NCBI GenBank assembly: GCA_963791105.1
Contig: CAWBRA010000008.1
Span: forward strand, 13,458 to 77,457
Length of the DNA: 64,000 bases
From: an uncultured Actinomycetota bacterium
Lineage (GTDB): Bacteria > Actinomycetota > Actinomycetes > Propionibacteriales > Nocardioidaceae
Direction: 5' to 3'
The position numbers and the translations under genes were made by a program. The notes under the pieces are model-generated. The model saw only the letters and a program-made list of their open reading frames with translations. It did no database searches and was not told where the DNA came from. Of the stretch, positions 4-33,182 are shown piece after piece; within the stretch, counting starts at the first letter, position 1; every line of letters starts with the position of its first letter.

Positions 4-2610
4 GTGCACGGCGGCGTGAAGTTCTACCGCGGCGCAGCGAAGGCTGCCCGGGCCTACGTCGAGCGCGATCGGTCCCGGGCCGATGACTACTACCTCGGCG
101 AAGGCACCGGCGTCGCCGAGCGACTCACCGCGACCCCGGCTGGCGTAGCGGGAGCCGGTTCGATGGACGGTGAAACCTATGAGCAGTGGGTCGCCGGGGT
201 CGACGTCGACACCGGCCGGAAGAAGGGCCGGGTCCGCGACGACGCGAACGCGCTGCGGTTCGTCGAGGTCACCGTCAACGGACCCAAGACCTGGTCACTG
301 GCCGCCGCGCTGCATCCAGACATCTCGGCCGCGCTGGACGCAGCCCAGGACAGGGCCGCCGCCGAGATCGTCGGCTGGGTGGCCCAGCACGCGACGACCC
401 GGGTGGGACCGCGCGGTCGCCAGGTGCAGGTACCGGTCGAGAAGATCGAGGCAGCCGTGATCCGGCACTACACCTCCCGTGCCGGGGACCCTCACCGTCA
501 TCTTCACCTGCAGATCAACGCCCGCGTGTTCGCCGCCGGCGCGTGGCGGGGTCTGCACTCGGTCGGGGTGCGCGACATGATCGAGGCCATCAACGGCATC
601 GGCCACGCAGCGGTCGCCACCGACCCGGAGTTCCGGGCGGTCCTCGCCGCACGAGGCTTCAGCCTGGACGCCGAGACCGGGGAGATCGAGCAGCTCGCGC
701 CGTACGCCGGGGCGTTCAGCGCTCGGACCAGTCAGATCCACCGCAACATCGACCGGTACGAAGCCGAGTGGCGGCGCGAGCATCCCGGCGAGGACCCGGG
801 GCCGCGGCTGCGCGAGGCGTGGGATCGACGGGCGTGGGCCGATGCGCGGCCGGACAAGGTCGTCCCCACCGACGGCGCGGACCTGGTCGCACGGTGGAAC
901 GCCGAGCTGCGCGACTTGGGCTACCGCGACCCAGCCGCCCCAGCCGTGCTCGAAGCGACCCAGGTGGGCTGGATCGACCGCGACGGTGCGGCGGACTGGG
1001 TGATCTCCCAGCTCGGGGCGAAGCGGTCGGCGTGGAACGCCGCCGACATCCGCGGCAAGGTCGAGGTTCTGCTGGCACAGGCCAACCTGGTGGCGGAGCC
1101 CGCGGCGCGCATCGAGCTCGCCGAGGACGTGACCGCCCGCGCCGCCGCACGCTGCGTTCGGCTGCTCGCCTCACCCGACGTGCCCGAACATGTCCGCTCG
1201 CTGACCTCCCAGCACGCGTTGGCGGTGGAAGCGGATCTCGTCCACCGCCTCGCTCGCCGGGCCGAGAAGCCCGCCCGACGGGTCCGGCTGCAAGGGCGAG
1301 GGCTGACGCGGATCGACCCCACCCAGGCCGCCGTCGTCGGCGCCCTGGCCGGGGACGGCCAGCTGGTGGTCGTGGAGGGCGCGGCCGGCGCAGGCAAGAC
1401 CACTGCGTTGAGGTCGGCGCAAGCCGTGTTGGCTCGGCAGGGACATCGGCTGCTTGTGGTGACGCCGACGTTGAAGGCGGCCGAGGTCGCCGCCGCGGAG
1501 ACCGGCGCCGAAGGGCACTCGGCCGCCTGGCTGATCCACAAGCACGGCTGGCGCTGGGACGACGAAGGGCACTGGGCACGGCGCCCCGACGCCACCCCCG
1601 ACCCGGCCGCCCGGCTGCGACCAGGAGACCTGCTGCTGGTCGATGAGGCGGGCATGCTGGACCAGGACACCGCCCGCGCGCTCCTGACGGTCGCCGACGA
1701 GGCCGGGGCGCGGGTCGCGCTGGTCGGTGACCGGCACCAGCTGCCAGCGGTCGGACGCGGTGGCGTCCTGGACCACGCCCTCGCGTGGGCCCACCCGACC
1801 GCGGTCGTGGCCCTGGAGAAGGTGCACCGGTTCACCGATCCCGGTTACGCCGCGCTCTCCCTGCGCATGCGCACCGGCGACGACCCTGCCGCCGTCTTCG
1901 ACGCGTTGCATCGTCGCAGGTCGATCGTCGTCCACCCCAGCGACAGCGAGCGCACCGCTGCCCTCGCCGAGGCGGGAGCGGCCGGCGACCTTGTCGTCGC
2001 TGACACCCGCGAGCACGTGGCCAGTCTCAACGCCGCGATCCGCGACCAGCGTCGCGCCGACCCCACCACAGGCGACCCGGCCGATTCGATGGTGACCGCT
2101 CGCGGCGAACGGATCGGGCTCGGGGACCGCGTCGCCACTCGCCGCAACGACGCCGACCTCGGGGTCGCCAACCGCCAGACCTGGACAGTCACCGGTATCG
2201 ACGAGGACGGCAACCTGCTTCTTCACGGCCACGGGCGCGATCGCGAGATCCCGGCGGAGTACGCCACCCGGTTCGTCGAGCTCGCCTACGCCACCACGGT
2301 CCACGGAGCCCAGGGCGAGACCGTCGACCATGCCTACGTCGCGATCGGCGACACGACCGGCGCCGCTGCGGCGTACGTCTCAATGACCCGCGGCCGCGAA
2401 CACAACACCGCCCACCTGGTGGCCGAGAGCGTCGAGGACGCCCGCAAACAGTGGATCGCGGTCTTCGGCCGCGACCGCGCCGACCTCGGCCCGGCACACG
2501 CCCGACGCCAAGCCATCGACGCGATCGATGCGTACGGCCCACGACACCGCGGACCGTTGCCGGAGCATCGACGGGCCATCACCGCCAGCGGCGTTGCACT
2601 TGGTCTGTGA
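4..2610 (+). CDS. MobF/TrwC-type conjugative relaxase fused to a RecD-like helicase
   Basis: N-terminus carries DDYYLGEG (Tyr pair) and the His cluster DPHRHLHLQIN. Mid-region has the P-loop GAAGAGKTTAL. C-terminus has the UvrD_C-like TTVHGAQGETVDHAYV. GTG start at position 4, so the true start could lie upstream of the window. Confidence 0.85.
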   Translation: MHGGVKFYRGAAKAARAYVERDRSRADDYYLGEGTGVAERLTATPAGVAGAGSMDGETYEQWVAGVDVDTGRKKGRVRDDANALRFVEVTVNGPKTWSLAAALHPDISAALDAAQDRAAAEIVGWVAQHATTRVGPRGRQVQVPVEKIEAAVIRHYTSRAGDPHRHLHLQINARVFAAGAWRGLHSVGVRDMIEAINGIGHAAVATDPEFRAVLAARGFSLDAETGEIEQLAPYAGAFSARTSQIHRNIDRYEAEWRREHPGEDPGPRLREAWDRRAWADARPDKVVPTDGADLVARWNAELRDLGYRDPAAPAVLEATQVGWIDRDGAADWVISQLGAKRSAWNAADIRGKVEVLLAQANLVAEPAARIELAEDVTARAAARCVRLLASPDVPEHVRSLTSQHALAVEADLVHRLARRAEKPARRVRLQGRGLTRIDPTQAAVVGALAGDGQLVVVEGAAGAGKTTALRSAQAVLARQGHRLLVVTPTLKAAEVAAAETGAEGHSAAWLIHKHGWRWDDEGHWARRPDATPDPAARLRPGDLLLVDEAGMLDQDTARALLTVADEAGARVALVGDRHQLPAVGRGGVLDHALAWAHPTAVVALEKVHRFTDPGYAALSLRMRTGDDPAAVFDALHRRRSIVVHPSDSERTAALAEAGAAGDLVVADTREHVASLNAAIRDQRRADPTTGDPADSMVTARGERIGLGDRVATRRNDADLGVANRQTWTVTGIDEDGNLLLHGHGRDREIPAEYATRFVELAYATTVHGAQGETVDHAYVAIGDTTGAAAAYVSMTRGREHNTAHLVAESVEDARKQWIAVFGRDRADLGPAHARRQAIDAIDAYGPRHRGPLPEHRRAITASGVALGL

Positions 2611-3624: not shown

Positions 3625-4723
3625 ATGGCGGGAAACATCGCCAAGCGAGCCAACGGAAAATGGCGGGCGCGGTATCGCGACGACGCCGGTAACGAACGCG
3701 CTAGGCACTTCGACCGCAAGATCGATGCGCAGCAGTGGCTGGACCAGGTCACCTCGGCCGTGGTGACCGGCACGTACGCCGATCCCAAGGCCGGCCGGAT
3801 CACCTTCGCGGCGTACTTCGGCGAGTGGTCGGCCCGCCAGGTCTGGGCACCCGGCACCGTGCTCGCGATGTCGCTGGCGGCGAGATCCGTGCCGTTCGCG
3901 GGGAAGCCGATGAAGCAGGTCCGGCGATCGGACGTCGAGACCTGGATCAAGCAGATGAACGCCGCCGGGCTTGCCCCCGGCACGATCAAGACGCGGTACG
4001 TCAACGTCAGGTCGGTGTTCCGCGCCGCCGTGAAGGACAGGGTGATCGGCTCCGACCCGACCGACGGCGTACGCCTCCCCCGCGGCCGTCGCGCGGACGT
4101 GGCCATGTCGATCCCCGCTCCGGAGGAGGTGGGGCAGCTCATGGCCGTGGCCGACGAGCGGTTCCAGCCGTTCATCGCCCTCTGCGCTTTCGCCGGCCTG
4201 CGGCTCGGCGAGGCCGCCGGGGTCCAGCTCGGCGACGTGGACTTCCTCCGCAGGTCGCTGAAGGTGTCCCGCCAGGTCCAGCGCGTCAACGGCGGGGAGA
4301 TCGACGTGCGAGCGCCGAAGTACGGCTCCGAGCGCGTCGTCTACCTCGCCGACAGCCTCGTCAACGTGCTCGCCGACCACGTCACGCGCCCACGGCACGA
4401 CCGGCAAGGATCGGTGGCTCTTCGCCGGGGAGGGCGACGACCCACCGCACCAGAACACCGTCGGCTACTGGTGGCGCAAGACGCTGCGCGACGCCGGCCT
4501 CTCCGGCATCAAGCTCCACGACCTGCGGCACTTCTACGCCTCCGGGCTCATCGCCGCCGGGTGCGACGTCGTGACCGTCCAGCGCTCGCTCGGTCACGCG
4601 AAGGCGACCACAACCCTCAACACCTACGCCCATCTCTGGCCGACTGCCGAGGACCGGACGAGGAAGGCGGCGGAGTCGATCATGGCCGCGTCGCTCGGAC
4701 CTCGCGGAGTAGGCGCGCGTTGA
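3625..4723 (+). pseudogene. int: Tyrosine recombinase/integrase, frameshifted
   Basis: GGAAGGAG RBS plus ATG 3625. The N-terminal SAM-like and core-binding part (MAGNIAKRANGKWRARYRDDAGNERARHF...) is in one frame up to about 4388. The catalytic C-terminus (GKDRWLFAGEGDDPPHQNTVGYWW...IKLHDLRHFYASGLIAAG...LGHAKATTTLNTYAHLW, stop 4721-4723) is in the +1 frame. The junction is at cgcgcccacgg, about 4386-4392. Confidence 0.8.
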
Positions 4724-18533: not shown

Positions 18534-19310
18534 GTGCGGATCGCCACCTGGAACGTCAACTCCCTGCGGAGCCGCATCGACCGGGTGGAAGGCCTCCTCC
18601 AGCGCCACCAGATCGACGTGCTCGCCCTGCAGGAGACCAAGGCCCGCGAGGACCAGCTCCCCCTGATGGGCCTGTCGGTCCTCGGGTACGACGTTGCCGC
18701 CGTCGGTCACGACCAGTGGAACGGGGTCGCGATCATCAGTCGTGTCGGCATCGAGGACGTCGAGGTCGGCTTCCCCGGCATGCCCACCTGGGGCGACCCG
18801 GCCGTGGCGGAGGCGCGCGCGATCGGGGCCACCTGCGGTGGTGTCCGGATGTGGTCGCTCTACGTCCCGAACGGCCGCAAGGTCGACGACCCCCACTACC
18901 ACTACAAGCTCGCGTGGCTGGCTCGGCTGCGCGAGGCGGCCCGCTCGATGACCGGGGACGTGGCCCTGGTCGGCGACTGGAACGTCGCCCCCCACGACGA
19001 GGACGTCTTCGACATGGCCCAGTTCGCGAAGAGCACCCACGTGACTCCCCAGGAGCGCGCAGCCTTCGCCGGCTTCCTCGAGGACGGCTACGTCGACGTC
19101 GTACGCCCACACACGCCCGGGCCGCACGTCTACACCTACTGGGACTACTACCGGCAGCGCTTCGAGCGCAACCGTGGCCTGCGCATCGACTTCGTCCTCG
19201 GCAGCGCGTCCCTGGCCTCCCGCGTGACCGGCGCCTTCATCGACACCGACGAGCGCGCCGGCAAGGGAGCCAGCGACCACGCCCCGGTGGTCGTCGACCT
19301 CGCCGACTGA
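18534..19310 (+). CDS. xthA: Exodeoxyribonuclease III
   Basis: MRIATWNVNSLRSR...LALQETK...GDWNVAP...SDHAPVVVDL. Confidence 0.9.
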   Translation: MRIATWNVNSLRSRIDRVEGLLQRHQIDVLALQETKAREDQLPLMGLSVLGYDVAAVGHDQWNGVAIISRVGIEDVEVGFPGMPTWGDPAVAEARAIGATCGGVRMWSLYVPNGRKVDDPHYHYKLAWLARLREAARSMTGDVALVGDWNVAPHDEDVFDMAQFAKSTHVTPQERAAFAGFLEDGYVDVVRPHTPGPHVYTYWDYYRQRFERNRGLRIDFVLGSASLASRVTGAFIDTDERAGKGASDHAPVVVDLAD

Positions 19311-19331
19311 CTCGGGCGCTCGGGCGGAGCC

Positions 19332-19517
19332 CGAGGTGGAGCCGAGACGTCGGACCCCACCAGGAGGCCTCGGGCGAAGCGCGAGGTGGAGCCGAGACGT
19401 CGGACCCCACCAGGAGGACTCGGGGCCGGACGCGCCCGAGGTGGAGCCGAGACGTCGGAAACGAACAGGGGGAGCGCAGCGGAGGATGTTCGGCTTGCGA
19501 CATCTCGGCGACCCCAC
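19332..19517 (+). repeat. Three direct copies of a structured repeat (two 36-nt short forms, one about 81-nt long form)
   Basis: CGAGGTGGAGCCGAGACGTCGGACCCCACCAGGAGG at 19332 and 19382. The long form from 19437 has the same ends with about 52 nt inserted between GACGTCGGA and CCCCAC. Confidence 0.85.
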
Positions 19518-20447
19518 AGACCAAAGGCGCGGACGGGAGCAAAGATGCGTACGCCGCTAGACCCCAGCGGCAGTCCACAGACCAAGATCACCCCTTGACT
19601 CGAACACCTGTTCGAACCAGAATAGACCCATGACAGCACTCCTCGACCGCCACCCCGACACGGCCCACCCCGTGCTCGCCGGCGTCGCCGAGCTGCACCA
19701 CCTGCTCGACCAGCTGCACACCCACGCCGGGACCAGCCTGAGAAGCGCCGACCACGCCGCCCTGGTCGCCGACCTCGACCGCGCCGGGCGCCGCCTCGAG
19801 GCCCTCAAGCTCAAGATCCTCGCCGCCGCCGACCACGCCGGCACCGCCCGCGACGCCGGGTTCACCGGCACCGACGCCTGGACCGCCCGACACACCAACA
19901 CCTCCCGGACCACCGCCGCCCGCGAAGTCCACCTCGCCACCGAGCTCGAGCACGGCCACGACACCACCGCCCAGGCCCTCGACGCCGGACTGGTCTCCCC
20001 CGCCCACGCCGCCGTCATCCTGCACGCCGCGGACCAGCTGCCCGCCGGAGTCAGCGACCAGCAACGCGCCACCGTCGAGAGCGTCCTCGTGGAGCAGGCA
20101 CAACGGCTCAACCCCGACCAGCTGCGCCGGCTCGCCCGCCGCGCCAGTCGAGGACGATCGAACCCGACCAAGCAGCCGTCGACGCCCACGAGAACGACCT
20201 CATCCGCACCGAGGAAGCCACCGCCCGCGACGCCTGCAGCCTCACCTTCCACGACAACGACGACGGCACCACCACCGGCCACTTCACCATCCCGACCCTG
20301 GCTGCAGCGGTGCTGCGCAAGGTCGATCGAGTCCATGACCGCACCCAGGCGGATGCGCGCGAGCGAGCAACCCAGTCACGACTGGCGCCACCGCCGAGGC
20401 CTTGCGTTCGCCGAGCTCCTCGAGCACCTGCCCACTCGGGCGCAGCC

Positions 20448-20529
20448 CGAGGCGGAGCCGAGACGTCGGAAACGAACAGGAGGAGCGCAGCGGGGGATGT
20501 TCGGCTTGCGACATCTCGGCGACCACCAC
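20448..20529 (+). repeat. Long-form copy of the repeat family inside the HNH pseudogene
   Basis: CGAGGCGGAGCCGAGACGTCGGAAACGAACAGGAGGAGCGCAGCGGGGGATGTTCGGCTTGCGACATCTCGGCGACCACCAC, only a few mismatches from 19437-19517. Confidence 0.85.
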
Positions 20530-20637
20530 ACGCCGACGGCGACGGCGCAGCCTGACCCGGCCCGAGAGCTCAGCCAGAGGGAATCCTCCGCTGCCGAACG
20601 CGCGGTCCACCTCCACACGCTTTCCGAGCCTCGGCGC

Positions 20638-20720
20638 GTGGGGTCCCCGACGCGTCCCAAGCCGTACATCCTCCGCTGCGCTCCCCCTGTCCGTTTGTGA
20701 CGAGTCGGCTCCACTTCCGG
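20638..20720 (-). repeat. Inverted long-form copy of the repeat family
   Basis: The reverse complement reads CCGGAAGTGGAGCCGACTCGTCACAAACGGACAGGGGGAGCGCAGCGGAGGATGTACGGCTTGGGACGCGTCGGGGACCCCAC. Together with 20448-20529 it forms an inverted pair spanning about 270 bp. Confidence 0.8.
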
Positions 20721-20931
20721 CTCACGCCGGAAACGAACTCCACCATCGCAAGCACTTCAGCCGAGGCGGCCGCACCGACCAGGCCAACGCCGTCCCGCTG
20801 TGCTACTTCCACCACCAACGCATCCACGACCCCGAGTTCCACCATCTCGACGAACCCGGCGGCACGATCAGCTTCCGCAGGCGCGGGTGAGGTCCGCGGA
20901 CTTGTCGGTGCCGGCTGCGACAGTGCTGGGC

Positions 20932-22071
20932 ATGGACATCCTGCTTCCCCTCCTGACCCTGGTGATCGGCACGCTGCTCGGGGCCGTCGCGGTGCTGGTG
21001 TGGTCACGGCGCGCGGGTGACCCCGACGTGTTGCGCGCGCTGTCAGCGCGTGGGGAGGACCAGGCCGTGCTGCGGGACGGCCTGGACCGCCTCCACGAGC
21101 GCCTGATGGACGTCGAGCAACAGCGCGCGTCCTGGCAGGGGCAGCTGCGTCAGCAGGTCTCGGACATGCGGCACAGCACCGATCTGCTGCGCAAGGAGAC
21201 CGGCGCGCTGTCCACGGCGCTGCGCAAGCCGCACGTGCGCGGGCAGTGGGGCGAGCTGCACCTGCGTCGCGCGGTGGAGCTGTCCGGCCTGGTGGAGCAC
21301 TGCGACTTCGACGAGCAGGTGCACATCCAGCGCGAGGACGGCAACCACCGACCCGACCTGGTGGTGCGGCTGGCCGGCGGACGGTCCGTGGTCGTGGACG
21401 CCAAGGTCCCGCTCGACGCGCAGCTGGACGCCCTGTCGACCGATGACCCCGAGGAGGCGGAGGCCCACCTGCGCCGCCACGTGCGTCAGGTCCGCACCCA
21501 CGTGGACACCCTCGCCAGCAAGGCCTACTGGCGCTCGATGCCTGGGGCGCCGGAGTTCGTGGTGATGTTCGTGCCGGCCGAGTCGTTCCTGGCCACCGCG
21601 CTCGACACCGACCCCTCGCTGCTGTCGTACGCCGCTGGGAAGGACGTGGTGATCGCCACCCCGACCACCCTGATCGCCCTGCTCCGCACGATCGCGCACG
21701 GCTGGACCACCGAGGTCCTCGCGGAGCGGACCCGGGAGATCCACGAGCTCGGCCGCGAGCTGCACTCTCGGCTGGGCGTGATGGGCGGCCATCTCGACAA
21801 GGTCGGTCGCTCGCTCAAGGGTGCTGTCGACGCCTACAACAGCGCGATCGGCTCGATCGAGAGCCGGGTGCTGGTCACCGCACGTCAGTTCGAGGACATC
21901 GGTGTCACGCGCGACCACATCGCCGGTGTCGAGCCGGTCACGCACGTTCCGCGACCACTCACGGCCGCAGAGCTGCTCGACGCCGTGGCCGAGGAGCGTG
22001 CCGAGCTCCCGGCGTCCAGCGGCGTGTCGCCCGGCGAGTCCCCCGGCGAGTCGCGCAGATCCAGCGCCTGA
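20932..22071 (+). CDS. rmuC: DNA recombination protein RmuC
   Basis: N-terminal TM, coiled-coil, then GQWGELHLRRAVELSGL...VVVDAKVPL...EFVVMFVPAESF. Confidence 0.9.
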   Translation: MDILLPLLTLVIGTLLGAVAVLVWSRRAGDPDVLRALSARGEDQAVLRDGLDRLHERLMDVEQQRASWQGQLRQQVSDMRHSTDLLRKETGALSTALRKPHVRGQWGELHLRRAVELSGLVEHCDFDEQVHIQREDGNHRPDLVVRLAGGRSVVVDAKVPLDAQLDALSTDDPEEAEAHLRRHVRQVRTHVDTLASKAYWRSMPGAPEFVVMFVPAESFLATALDTDPSLLSYAAGKDVVIATPTTLIALLRTIAHGWTTEVLAERTREIHELGRELHSRLGVMGGHLDKVGRSLKGAVDAYNSAIGSIESRVLVTARQFEDIGVTRDHIAGVEPVTHVPRPLTAAELLDAVAEERAELPASSGVSPGESPGESRRSSA

Positions 22072-31110: not shown

Positions 31111-32193
<1,083 letters not shown>

Positions 32194-32249
32194 GATTTAT
32201 CTCCTCACCGGCAGGAACGTGCCGGACGATCCGTTGTAAGTGACGACGG

Positions 32250-33182
32250 TCACACTACCCGCTCCCGGAGCTCCAGGCCCCGGCCGTCCGGGCGCCACCC
32301 CACCAGCACGGGGTCGATCAGCCCACCGACGAACTCGTGGTCTGGTCCGGAGTTGCGAAAAGCCATGAAGTACGCCGCTGCCTCGTGGTGGACCACCTTG
32401 CCGACGTACAGCGACTCGTCGGTGAGGCGGACGGCAGCGGCCACGTCGACGACGGCGCCGGGACCGTCCACGGGGACCGACCAGACCCCACCCGACCCCG
32501 GGTCGGCGCCCGGCATCTCGCTGCCCAGGCAGGAGAACAGCAGCACCCAACGGCCCTCCACGAGCACCACCTGAATGACCTCCAACCACTCGAATCGCCC
32601 CGTCGGCACGCTCAGCGCCGGACCCACCTCCCACGATCGGAGATCGTGGGAGGTCGCGTGCCCCACGACTCCACACCCCGGGGTGGCAGCGACATCGCGC
32701 GCCGTTACGTACATGTGCCACAGCCCGGCCTCGTCCCGCACGACCCACGGGTCCCGCCAGGCCTCCTCCGGCCAGGCTCCGCTGGATCGTTGGTAGCTCG
32801 GCAGGCAGGCCTCGACCACGGTGGAGGTGCGGGTCCACGTCACGAGGTCCGCAGAGCGCGCGGACCCGATGCGCTGGACCAGACCACCGTCGGACCTCGT
32901 GAGCCCGGTGCTGAACAGCCACCACGAGTCGTCGCCGCGCACCGTGCAGCCGGTCCACTGCGCCAGGTCGTCGAACGTGCTCCGCTCGGGCAACGGATCG
33001 TCCAGGCACTCCCAGGTCTCCAGGTCAGCGGACACGGCATGGCCGATGCGCGCACGGCGATGGCGCAGGTCCGGATCTCCCAGCGACCGCGGCGCCTTCA
33101 GGAAGAACAGGTGCTGGTGGCCACTCGTCGGATCCCGGATCGTCCAGAAGTCCCAGACGTAGTCCTCAGTTCGGTCGAACAT
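32250..33182 (-). CDS. Glycoside hydrolase, clan GH-J (GH32/GH68-like) five-bladed propeller, cytoplasmic
   Basis: VWDFWTIRD, WRDPWVVRD (RDP motif) and WLEVIQV. 310 aa with no signal peptide. TGATG 1-nt overlap with lacI. Confidence 0.55.
   Translation of the reverse strand: MFDRTEDYVWDFWTIRDPTSGHQHLFFLKAPRSLGDPDLRHRRARIGHAVSADLETWECLDDPLPERSTFDDLAQWTGCTVRGDDSWWLFSTGLTRSDGGLVQRIGSARSADLVTWTRTSTVVEACLPSYQRSSGAWPEEAWRDPWVVRDEAGLWHMYVTARDVAATPGCGVVGHATSHDLRSWEVGPALSVPTGRFEWLEVIQVVLVEGRWVLLFSCLGSEMPGADPGSGGVWSVPVDGPGAVVDVAAAVRLTDESLYVGKVVHHEAAAYFMAFRNSGPDHEFVGGLIDPVLVGWRPDGRGLELRERVV

Follow-up and report, generated by a model that had tools for sequence, protein, structure and literature searches.

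A small hairpin-forming repeat family associated with DUF222-HNH nuclease genes in Nocardioides-like actinobacteria

Results

Five repeats beside and within one gene

The sequence examined, termed the window, is a stretch of 64,000 nucleotides (nt) of contig CAWBRA010000008.1 from an uncultured member of the Nocardioidaceae. Between positions 19300 and 20740 it carries five copies of a hairpin-forming repeat, three long and two truncated and in tandem. In order, the locus comprises a sigma/anti-sigma pair, an exonuclease III-like (xthA-like) gene (18534-19310), the repeats, a DUF222-HNH nuclease gene (19630-20890), rmuC, yrdC, ispH, and xseA. The window is high-GC core chromosome of Nocardioides/Marmoricola-like character, the closest XthA homologues (≤88% identity) bearing those names, and the sequence of the source locus was found in soil-metagenome DNA runs only. 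All sequences compared in this study come from metagenome assemblies; loci outside the window are designated by L numbers.

Five hairpin repeats in short and long forms had been predicted from the sequence, and a repeat finder located them at the same places. A direct family of 80 nt was found at 19434-19513 and 20445-20524 (96% identical), with 19329-19408 as the short region, and inverted arms at 19434-19517 and 20638-20721 showed 85% complementarity. The 17-mer GGAGCCGAGACGTCGGA was identical in both short copies and the long copies, and the 29-nt 3' arm had two matches in the window, where none was expected by chance. No copies beyond the five were found across the whole 64-kb window.

The full unit is about 95 nt and consists of a 7-bp hairpin (P1; for example, CTCGGGC-GCA-GCCCGAG), a 22-bp hairpin (P2) with a 19-nt purine-rich loop, and the tail GACCCCAC. 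The original prediction had given the long unit as about 81 nt. The hairpin in that description was correct, whereas its extent was too short: the covarying P1 lies 5' of P2, so that the unit is about 95 nt, and the predicted end at 20720 cuts the P1 of the third copy.

Long copy 1 (19419-19517, forward strand; 98 bits with model R1) is situated 113 nt upstream of the ATG of the HNH gene and is co-oriented with it. Its P1 has an enlarged loop. Its P2 (19446-19509) has an outer stem of GCCGAGACGTCG (19446-19457) with CGACATCTCGGC (19498-19509), including one C.A mismatch, and an inner stem of CGAACA (19462-19467) with TGTTCG (19487-19492), both exactly as had been proposed; the loop GGGGGAGCGCAGCGGAGGA lies at 19468-19486 and the tail GACCCCAC at 19510-19517. 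Long copy 2 (20435-20529, forward strand; 107 bits) is intragenic and direct, with P1 at 20435-20451, P2 at 20457-20520, the loop GGAGGAGCGCAGCGGGGGA at 20479-20497, and the tail GACCACCAC. Long copy 3 (20638-20732, reverse strand; 108.5 bits) is intragenic and inverted, with its tail at 20638-20645, P2 at 20646-20709, and P1 at 20715-20732. The G-C to C-G compensatory swap noted earlier in this copy is present at the fifth pair of the outer stem. The 108-nt spacer between the two intragenic copies (20530-20637, forward strand) is not HNH coding sequence, and its first ~50 nt (..CCTGACCC..CCCGAG..) resemble the sequence 3' of the direct copy in L007, L002, and L003.

The short copies are, as predicted, the long form minus about 52 internal nt. 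Short copy 1 (19319-19361, forward strand) retains P1 (CTCGGGC-GGA-GCCCGAG), the outer 5' arm of P2 (GGAGCCGAGACGTCGGA), and a CCCCACC tail, with the apical 52 nt and the 3' arm deleted. Short copy 2 (19369-19411, forward strand) follows in tandem with a period of 50 nt and has one P1 mismatch. These short forms were unique to this window among the loci compared. Directly 3' of the xthA-like stop codon (TGA, 19308-19310), a stray P1 half (CTCGGGCG, 19311-19318, forward strand) could be read from the sequence, and the syntenic locus L001 has a degraded CTCGGGC...GGCGGAGCC remnant at the matching position.

Two of the repeats disrupt the DUF222-HNH gene

The original prediction did not note that two of the five copies lie inside, and destroy, the DUF222-HNH gene, or that the repeats as a family are linked to genes of this type. 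The N-terminal DUF222 part (19630-20434, forward strand), assigned by Pfam (DUF222, 8.5e-12, 19630-20700) and by tblastn against the L007 protein, ends in ...LLEHLPT, and long copy 2 starts right after these codons. Long copy 3 stops just before, and abuts, the codons for NELHH of the HNH motif, with which the C-terminal HNH remnant begins (20733-20890, forward strand; NELHH...LCYFHHQRIHD..., stop codon at 20888-20890; a weak Pfam HNH match of 0.001, and tblastn). The frame of this remnant differs from that of the N-terminal part. Relative to the intact L009 gene, about 100 codons are gone from the window, including those for the zinc-finger cysteines of the nuclease, and because of this loss two of the five repeats are considered to have destroyed the gene. 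The data support that the direct and inverted copies, with their 108-nt spacer, replaced the gene centre and inactivated the nuclease.

A group I/II intron or an intein was considered and rejected. Its removal would not restore the gene, since 75 to 100 host codons are missing at the insertion and the two halves are in different frames when set against intact L009. Further frame changes occur within the N-terminal part near 20147/20152 and near 20325. Soil-metagenome contigs were found without one base at each of 20147, 20152, and 20325, and these frameshifts may be assembly indel errors or strain differences rather than real decay.

The gene class is REP13E12-type by its DUF222 and HNH domains, and intact relatives (415 to 483 amino acids) have both. 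The predicted promoter (19595-19632, forward strand) is close to consensus and comprises a -35 element (TTGACT), an SOS box (TCGAACACCTGTTCGA, 19600-19615), and a -10 element (CAGAAT, 19618-19623), followed by the ATG at 19630. The predicted SOS box is a perfect TCGAAC-N4-GTTCGA located between the -35 and -10 elements and fits the mycobacterial LexA consensus; the ATG lies seven bases past the -10 element, which suggests a leaderless mRNA. The same layout of -35, SOS box, and -10 is kept in L002, L007, L038, and L041. In Mycobacterium tuberculosis, LexA binds at six 13E12-family (DUF222) genes, with the consensus TCGAAC(N4)GTTCGA (PMC3381160).

Covarying stems and a conserved loop

Single-copy RNA folding energies were at best modestly better than those of shuffled sequences (z of -1.2 to -2.1, and +1.1 for long copy 3). 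The contrast was clearer with DNA parameters (z of -3.5 and -4.3), with which both strands folded about equally well. Copies 2 and 3 together with their spacer form a foldback of ~297-298 nt (-182.6 kcal/mol, z of -10.7). As the RNA energies barely beat shuffles, the structural case rests on covariation and not on energy.

In the model-based alignment of 19 copies, 90% of stem cells paired, compared with 27 to 42% when the partners were slid by 1 to 3 columns. Changes on both sides were found in 15 of 27 pairs, and the covariation score was reached by none of 500 shuffles. P1 covaried like P2. An independent MAFFT alignment agreed on the covariation, and RNAalifold recovered both helices. At its simplest, the effect was visible between L006 and L008, two copies from one genome whose difference is a single compensated pair. 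The selection on structure for which the single swap had been taken to argue is matched by strong covariation in the alignment of many copies, and the repeats are a real family whose hairpin structure is under selection.

The 19-nt loop is nearly invariant, with the consensus GGRGGAGCG(C/A)AGCGGRGGA and only three variants among the copies (GGGGGAGCGCAGCGGAGGA, GGAGGAGCGCAGCGGGGGA, and GGAGGAGCGAAGCGGGGGA). The outer stems of the two subtypes described below differ at ~10 of 22 positions while the loop is common to both; since identical loops sit on very different stems, the loop evolves more slowly than the stems. A slow-evolving centre is the reverse of the pattern in the terminal inverted repeats of transposons. 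Model R1 gave 75 to 118 bits on the loop-sense strand versus 20 to 38 bits on the opposite strand. The G.U versus A.C counts in P2 (9 versus 4 cells) gave no clear signal of which strand folds.

Loop positions 3 and 17 (e.g., 19470/19484 and 20481/20495) always change together, to G...A or A...G, with the consequence that every loop has one GGGGG and one GGAGG run; no pairing explains this. A pseudoknot between a loop G-run and the CCCC tail was rejected, as it showed no consistent covariation across copies. The likeness of the CGAACA/TGTTCG inner stem to an SOS box half-site was dismissed as coincidence because the other subtype has CTGACA/TGTCAG. A small open reading frame (ORF) from an ATG at the loop/stem edge was also rejected: its peptides differ among copies and the GGAGG-to-ATG spacing is 13 nt. 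It enters the HNH frame in L007 only.

Relatives in other genomes

Sixteen further copies were found in Nocardioides/Marmoricola-like genomes and soil metagenomes, giving 19 with the three long copies of the window. A loop-core scan of 185,579 species genomes returned nine loci in five metagenome-assembled genomes (MAGs), one of a Nocardioides sp. and the rest of uncultured Actinomycetota. A scan of metagenome contigs with a looser loop gave 27 loci, 25 of them by chance, and only L021 and L028 were real. Contigs of interrupted protein homologues yielded two more copies. The copy number was 1 to 3 exact loop cores per MAG, and a 2.9-Mb contig held one exact core plus a nearby inverted partner with 1 mismatch; these copy-number and distribution figures rest on loop-anchored searches, the genome scan requiring an exact loop. 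The best explanation of the observed distribution is that the element is confined to a clade of soil Nocardioidaceae (Nocardioides/Marmoricola-like).

Other searches were negative. A blastn search of plasmids and phages with the unit found no match, a viral-contig scan gave one chance match that was not a hairpin, and a protein-database search with the hairpin-encoded peptide produced no candidates. Across the whole window, Rfam 15 at the gathering threshold reported only the msiK motif and no repeat family. A permissive Rfam scan of 19250-20800 gave only a plant miRNA-precursor match (34 bits versus a threshold of 137), which is spurious and due to the intragenic foldback. A tRNA/tmRNA scan found none. 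The repeat had not been recognized as a described family when it was predicted, and it has no Rfam match; nor was such an element described in the papers searched on DUF222, REP13E12, MITE/hairpin, and Nocardioides.

Two subtypes were distinguished. The two-hairpin subtype (15 copies) has P1, P2, and the tail. The one-hairpin subtype (4 copies, in L005, L006, and L008) has P2 alone with a perfect 22-bp stem and is intergenic, mostly just 3' of stop codons.

Filled and empty sites in the nuclease genes

Among the 15 two-hairpin copies, 11 lie inside DUF222-HNH genes, 3 directly upstream of such genes, and 1 beside a remnant. The three upstream copies (long copy 1 of the window, L009, and L021) are 70 to 340 nt before the gene and in its orientation. 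The copy in L004 is followed by sequence homologous to the HNH 5' region and then by an IS3-family transposase. At least eight further loci and protein clusters show an interruption in the same part of the gene, and ~9 of the top 120 homologues of the N-terminal domain are proteins of 307 to 326 amino acids or fused forms whose tails are translated hairpin.

The junctions between gene and insert fall at four places within ~35 nt, after LEHLP, ..TDxLH, ..HLHPKT, and ..PRSVAT, and gene sequence picks up again at ..TCAADGCERPYAWCELHH or ELHH. An inverted copy of the unit forms the right edge of the insertion in the window, L007, and L002; in L003, L028, L038, and L039, an inverted second small hairpin motif takes its place. 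This second motif, GGTGGTTGAGGAGCGAGCG[CT]CAGCGAGCGTCTCGAAACCAC, occurs upstream of HNH genes or inverted at the intragenic right edge (L003 3106-3124; L021 1669-1687; L028 19-37; L038 2765-2783 and 4020-4038; L039 ~4014-4032) and is absent from the window. Its loop (GAGGAGCGAGCG..AGCG) resembles that of the main hairpin.

In the intact relatives L009, L040, and L041, the insertion site is empty, and L040 and L041 have no copy within 3 to 4 kb. At L041, the orthologous xthA-HNH-rmuC locus, the gene is intact and the hairpin is entirely absent; L042 lacks an HNH gene at this position. Several DUF222-HNH paralogues occur per genome, with four on the L007 contig. The interrupted gene L003 and the intact gene L009 are 92% identical paralogues from one genome, and the unit in L003 is 97% identical to that upstream of L009. 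Three units that are 96 to 97% identical occupy three contexts in one MAG: within a gene (L003), ahead of an intact one (L009), and beside the IS3 transposase (L004).

Boundaries and instability

For copies in unrelated flanks, blastn with ±250-nt flanks limited homology to the ~95 nt of the unit. Derivatives lacking parts of the hairpin were also found. L001 equals L002 minus P2, by a precise deletion, and in the short forms of the window, loss of the apex and 3' arm was followed by tandem duplication. In L008 (2020-2110, reverse strand), the hairpin of the one-hairpin subtype is followed by four head-to-tail copies of its 3' arm with a period of 32, and in L005 (copy L005b; 1390-1440, forward strand) by two copies with a period of 22. 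These tandem 3' arms mirror the tandem 5' half-units of the window. On sequence grounds, the hairpin deletions and tandem arms are best seen as the instability typical of palindromes.

In a comparison of the independently sampled interrupted paralogues L038 and L039, identity was highest in the unit (94.7%), compared with 89% in the C-terminal remnant, 88% in the sequence past the unit, and 81% in the N-terminal part. A frameshift in L039 joins the N-terminal part, hairpin, and C-terminal part into one ORF of 424 amino acids. In soil-metagenome contigs, word depth over the hairpins was 3 to 8 times that of the flanks, and loose ends joined the hairpin to other sequences; no clean excision joint was found in these contigs.

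Other features of the locus

What is inserted between the xthA-like gene and rmuC varies within the clade. In the window (19311-20932), this gap holds the repeats and the broken HNH gene; in L041 (4079-6062), an APH-like fragment and an intact HNH gene; and in L042 (4775-6338), a methyltransferase and a small ORF. Elsewhere in the window, the msiK RNA motif (Rfam RF01747) lies at 32194-32251 on the reverse strand, with 57.7 bits versus a gathering score of 33, directly upstream of a minus-strand ORF at 31111-32193.

Discussion

A DNA-level element or a structured RNA

The repeat is a discrete unit with covarying stems and a conserved loop; it is associated with DUF222-HNH genes, its sites are filled in some paralogues and empty in others, and hairpin-deletion derivatives of it exist. 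The interpretation favoured here, at about even confidence, is that of a small non-coding, non-autonomous palindromic element of ~95 nt whose spread occurs at the level of DNA and chiefly between HNH-gene loci, with a maintained fold and a loop that serves as a sequence determinant for some factor. Such an element would have spread by insertion and/or gene conversion among SOS-regulated DUF222-HNH (REP13E12-type) selfish nuclease genes, landing either in front of the gene or in the ~35-nt hot spot just past the LEHLP codons, the intragenic form being coupled to loss of the next 75 to 100 codons. The window would then present one full copy and two truncated tandem derivatives between the xthA-like and HNH genes, together with a direct and inverted pair that replaced the gene centre. 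Movement may proceed through a folded single-strand or cruciform intermediate, with the loop recognized by a trans-acting factor for which the DUF222-HNH nuclease would be one candidate, and break repair or gene conversion among HNH paralogues could be what spreads the element.

Several observations count against this interpretation. A conserved loop and covarying stems are equally expected of a functional RNA. A target-site duplication was sought in the flanks of 17 copies and none was seen, conserved termini were likewise not seen, and there was no transposase in the window nor any identified mobilizing enzyme. All intragenic insertions share some sequence outside the unit; what looks like a hot spot could therefore be the product of one ancient insertion, later altered by gene conversion and small deletions at its junctions. 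The ratio of nonsynonymous to synonymous substitution rates between L038 (3001-4279) and L039 (3001-4274) was 0.23 for the N-terminal part and 0.07 for the C-terminal remnant, so that both halves look constrained, which is not expected if the genes are simply dead; the low values could reflect gene conversion with intact paralogues or a residual function of the fragments. The copies of the one-hairpin subtype are not adjacent to HNH genes. Finally, the invariance of the loop and the low copy number are partly a matter of ascertainment, because the family was searched by its loop sequence.

The main rival is a functional structured RNA module, either part of an mRNA or its 3' untranslated region acting in cis or a small RNA, which we regard as possible but rather unlikely. 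It accounts equally well for the covariation of both helices and for the conserved loop sequence. In cis it could stabilize 3' ends, protect the SOS-controlled nuclease promoter against read-through as an insulator or terminator, or be a target of RNase III; its purine-rich loop (GGAGGAG...GGGGGA) would be the binding site for a protein or a C/U-rich partner. Consistent with this, several copies begin 1 to 30 nt past the stop codon of a co-oriented upstream gene (at 19311 of the window, following the TGA at 19308-19310; downstream of a TY-Chap3 gene in L021; a single base past a LuxR-type gene in L005a; and in L006), all upstream-type copies are co-oriented with the HNH gene, and the element is more conserved than adjacent coding DNA. 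However, the copies in L009 and L004 adjoin the start of a divergent gene rather than occupying a 3' untranslated region, L005b runs antisense to its neighbours on both sides, inverted intragenic copies would expose the complementary loop, and neither the G.U versus A.C counts nor Rfam pointed to an RNA. It is not a canonical intrinsic terminator, since the stem is followed by GACCCCAC and not by a U-tract and the loop is 19 nt (versus 3 to 8 nt); a terminator scan of 18800-21200 gave 0 sites. A double-stranded DNA site appeared improbable. Here the inverted repeat would be bound by a dimeric protein or would serve in recombination or cruciform resolution, the arms being binding elements, the 19-bp centre a crossover or recognition core, and the extra arms (L008, L005b, and the half units of the window) accessory sites. 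The inverted arms around a conserved asymmetric centre, with extra direct copies of one arm adjoining, do recall recombinase sites with accessory arms, and the association with nuclease genes and with insertion and deletion events would fit. Nevertheless, copies from the same genome carry different, internally compensated arms (L006 versus L008; long copies 1 and 2 versus long copy 3 of the window), which a single half-site-binding protein does not require, and the duplex site is disfavoured on this account. In addition, P1 covaries as well, the 19-bp centre is far longer than any crossover region known to us, and no recombinase gene lies near the copies.

That the repeats are GC-rich palindromes arisen by chance, artefacts of assembly, or the remains of a single duplicated coding segment has so little probability that it is regarded as excluded. 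High-GC DNA does fold well by chance, as the modest single-copy z values and the positive value for long copy 3 illustrate, and a metagenome assembly may hold indel errors. Yet the unit and its direct/inverted arrangement recur in independent assemblies and short-read contigs, no chance match to the 29-nt arm is expected, the covariation exceeded all controls, and intact homologous genes are without any such sequence. The copies are therefore not remnants of one duplicated coding segment, and their presence in other genomes sets aside the doubt, raised with the original prediction, that no further copies might exist.

Comparison with known repeat systems

By analogy, the element seems to work most like the mosaics of repetitive extragenic palindromic (REP) sequences and bacterial interspersed mosaic elements (BIMEs) or like foldback miniature inverted-repeat transposable elements (MITEs). 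The original prediction had suggested a MITE/REP-like element or a small structured RNA family. Membership in the REP family mobilized by REP-associated tyrosine transposases (RAYTs) or among classical MITEs was not supported, given the low copy number, the lack of any target-site duplication seen, the highest conservation being at the centre, and the lack of a transposase in the window. Like REP sequences and BIMEs, the repeats are short palindromic non-coding units, often just 3' of stop codons, direct and inverted, with a maintained structure and in mosaics with other small motifs, here the second hairpin GGTGGTTGAGGAGCGAGCG... in L003, L021, L028, L038, and L039. However, there are 1 to 3 exact cores per genome by the exact-loop scan, as against tens to hundreds of dispersed intergenic REP copies, and the unit is ~95 nt with two hairpins and a conserved 19-nt loop; no conserved 5' tetranucleotide was seen. 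It is tied to one gene family rather than scattered intergenically, and a Pfam scan of 26 ORFs from the window and fetched loci found no Y1 (RAYT) gene. As in MITEs and foldback elements, it is small, non-coding, non-autonomous, and gene-disrupting, and the intragenic copy, spacer, and inverted copy are foldback-like. In contrast to these, no target-site duplications were seen, the centre is conserved and the outer stems vary, single units and not just inverted pairs change context, and no parental insertion sequence is known.

The ends of IS200/IS605 elements and palindrome-associated transposable elements, which move by single-strand peel and paste, also have hairpins that fold in single strands, lack target duplications, and include small derivatives without a transposase. 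The left- and right-end hairpins of IS200/IS605-type elements resemble each other, whereas P1 and P2 are dissimilar, and the window and fetched loci showed neither a TnpA nor a TnpB gene. Many 5' flanks end in CAC or GAC, but the endings are not uniform, and no fixed target tetranucleotide was established. Integron attC sites, which lie in cassette arrays beside an integrase gene, have conserved outer R''/R' boxes (RYYYAAC/GTTRRRY) and a variable centre, the reverse of the arrangement here, and no integrase was found near any copy. Two mycobacterial repeats are also comparable. The host gene shares with REP13E12 of M. tuberculosis its DUF222 and HNH domains, an SOS box of mycobacterial consensus, and several paralogues per genome, but REP13E12 is itself a 1.4-kb gene-carrying repeat, and the hairpin would be a separate passenger or parasite of such genes. 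The two short forms with long copy 1 resemble mycobacterial interspersed repetitive units (compared by description) in being a 50- to 55-nt head-to-tail array just after a stop codon, co-oriented with the flanking genes; here, however, the tandem units derive by deletion from a hairpin element and are confined to this window. Among bacterial palindromic repeat elements, the conserved apical loop and the tight link to an SOS-regulated nuclease gene family are unusual.

Significance for DUF222-HNH genes

Few selfish-looking genes are as common in actinobacteria as the DUF222-HNH (13E12-repeat) genes, which are also present in M. tuberculosis and are SOS-induced there. To our knowledge, no substrate or mode of spread has been reported for them. 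The repeat adds an actinobacterial type to the known palindromic repeat elements, and DUF222-HNH nuclease genes can be knocked out by such repeats. For annotation, ORFs of 300 to 325 amino acids that end in ...AETSETNRRSAAGDVRLA... should be treated as truncated genes reading into a hairpin.

A structured element with a constant loop and co-evolving stems, placed repeatedly at the same site, is a concrete candidate interactor of DUF222-HNH genes, and at ~95 nt, with two helices and one loop, it is a compact test object. It is a long shot, and a speculative one, that the hairpin is the natural nucleic-acid partner of the DUF222-HNH nucleases, whether as a loop-recognized, cut single-stranded DNA or cruciform substrate or as a structured guide or decoy. 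If it were, hairpin element and REP13E12-type genes would be the two parts of one mobile system or, alternatively, opponents in an element-versus-parasite conflict, the hairpin homing into the nuclease gene and disabling it. Either would provide a first mechanistic handle on how 13E12-type elements act and move.

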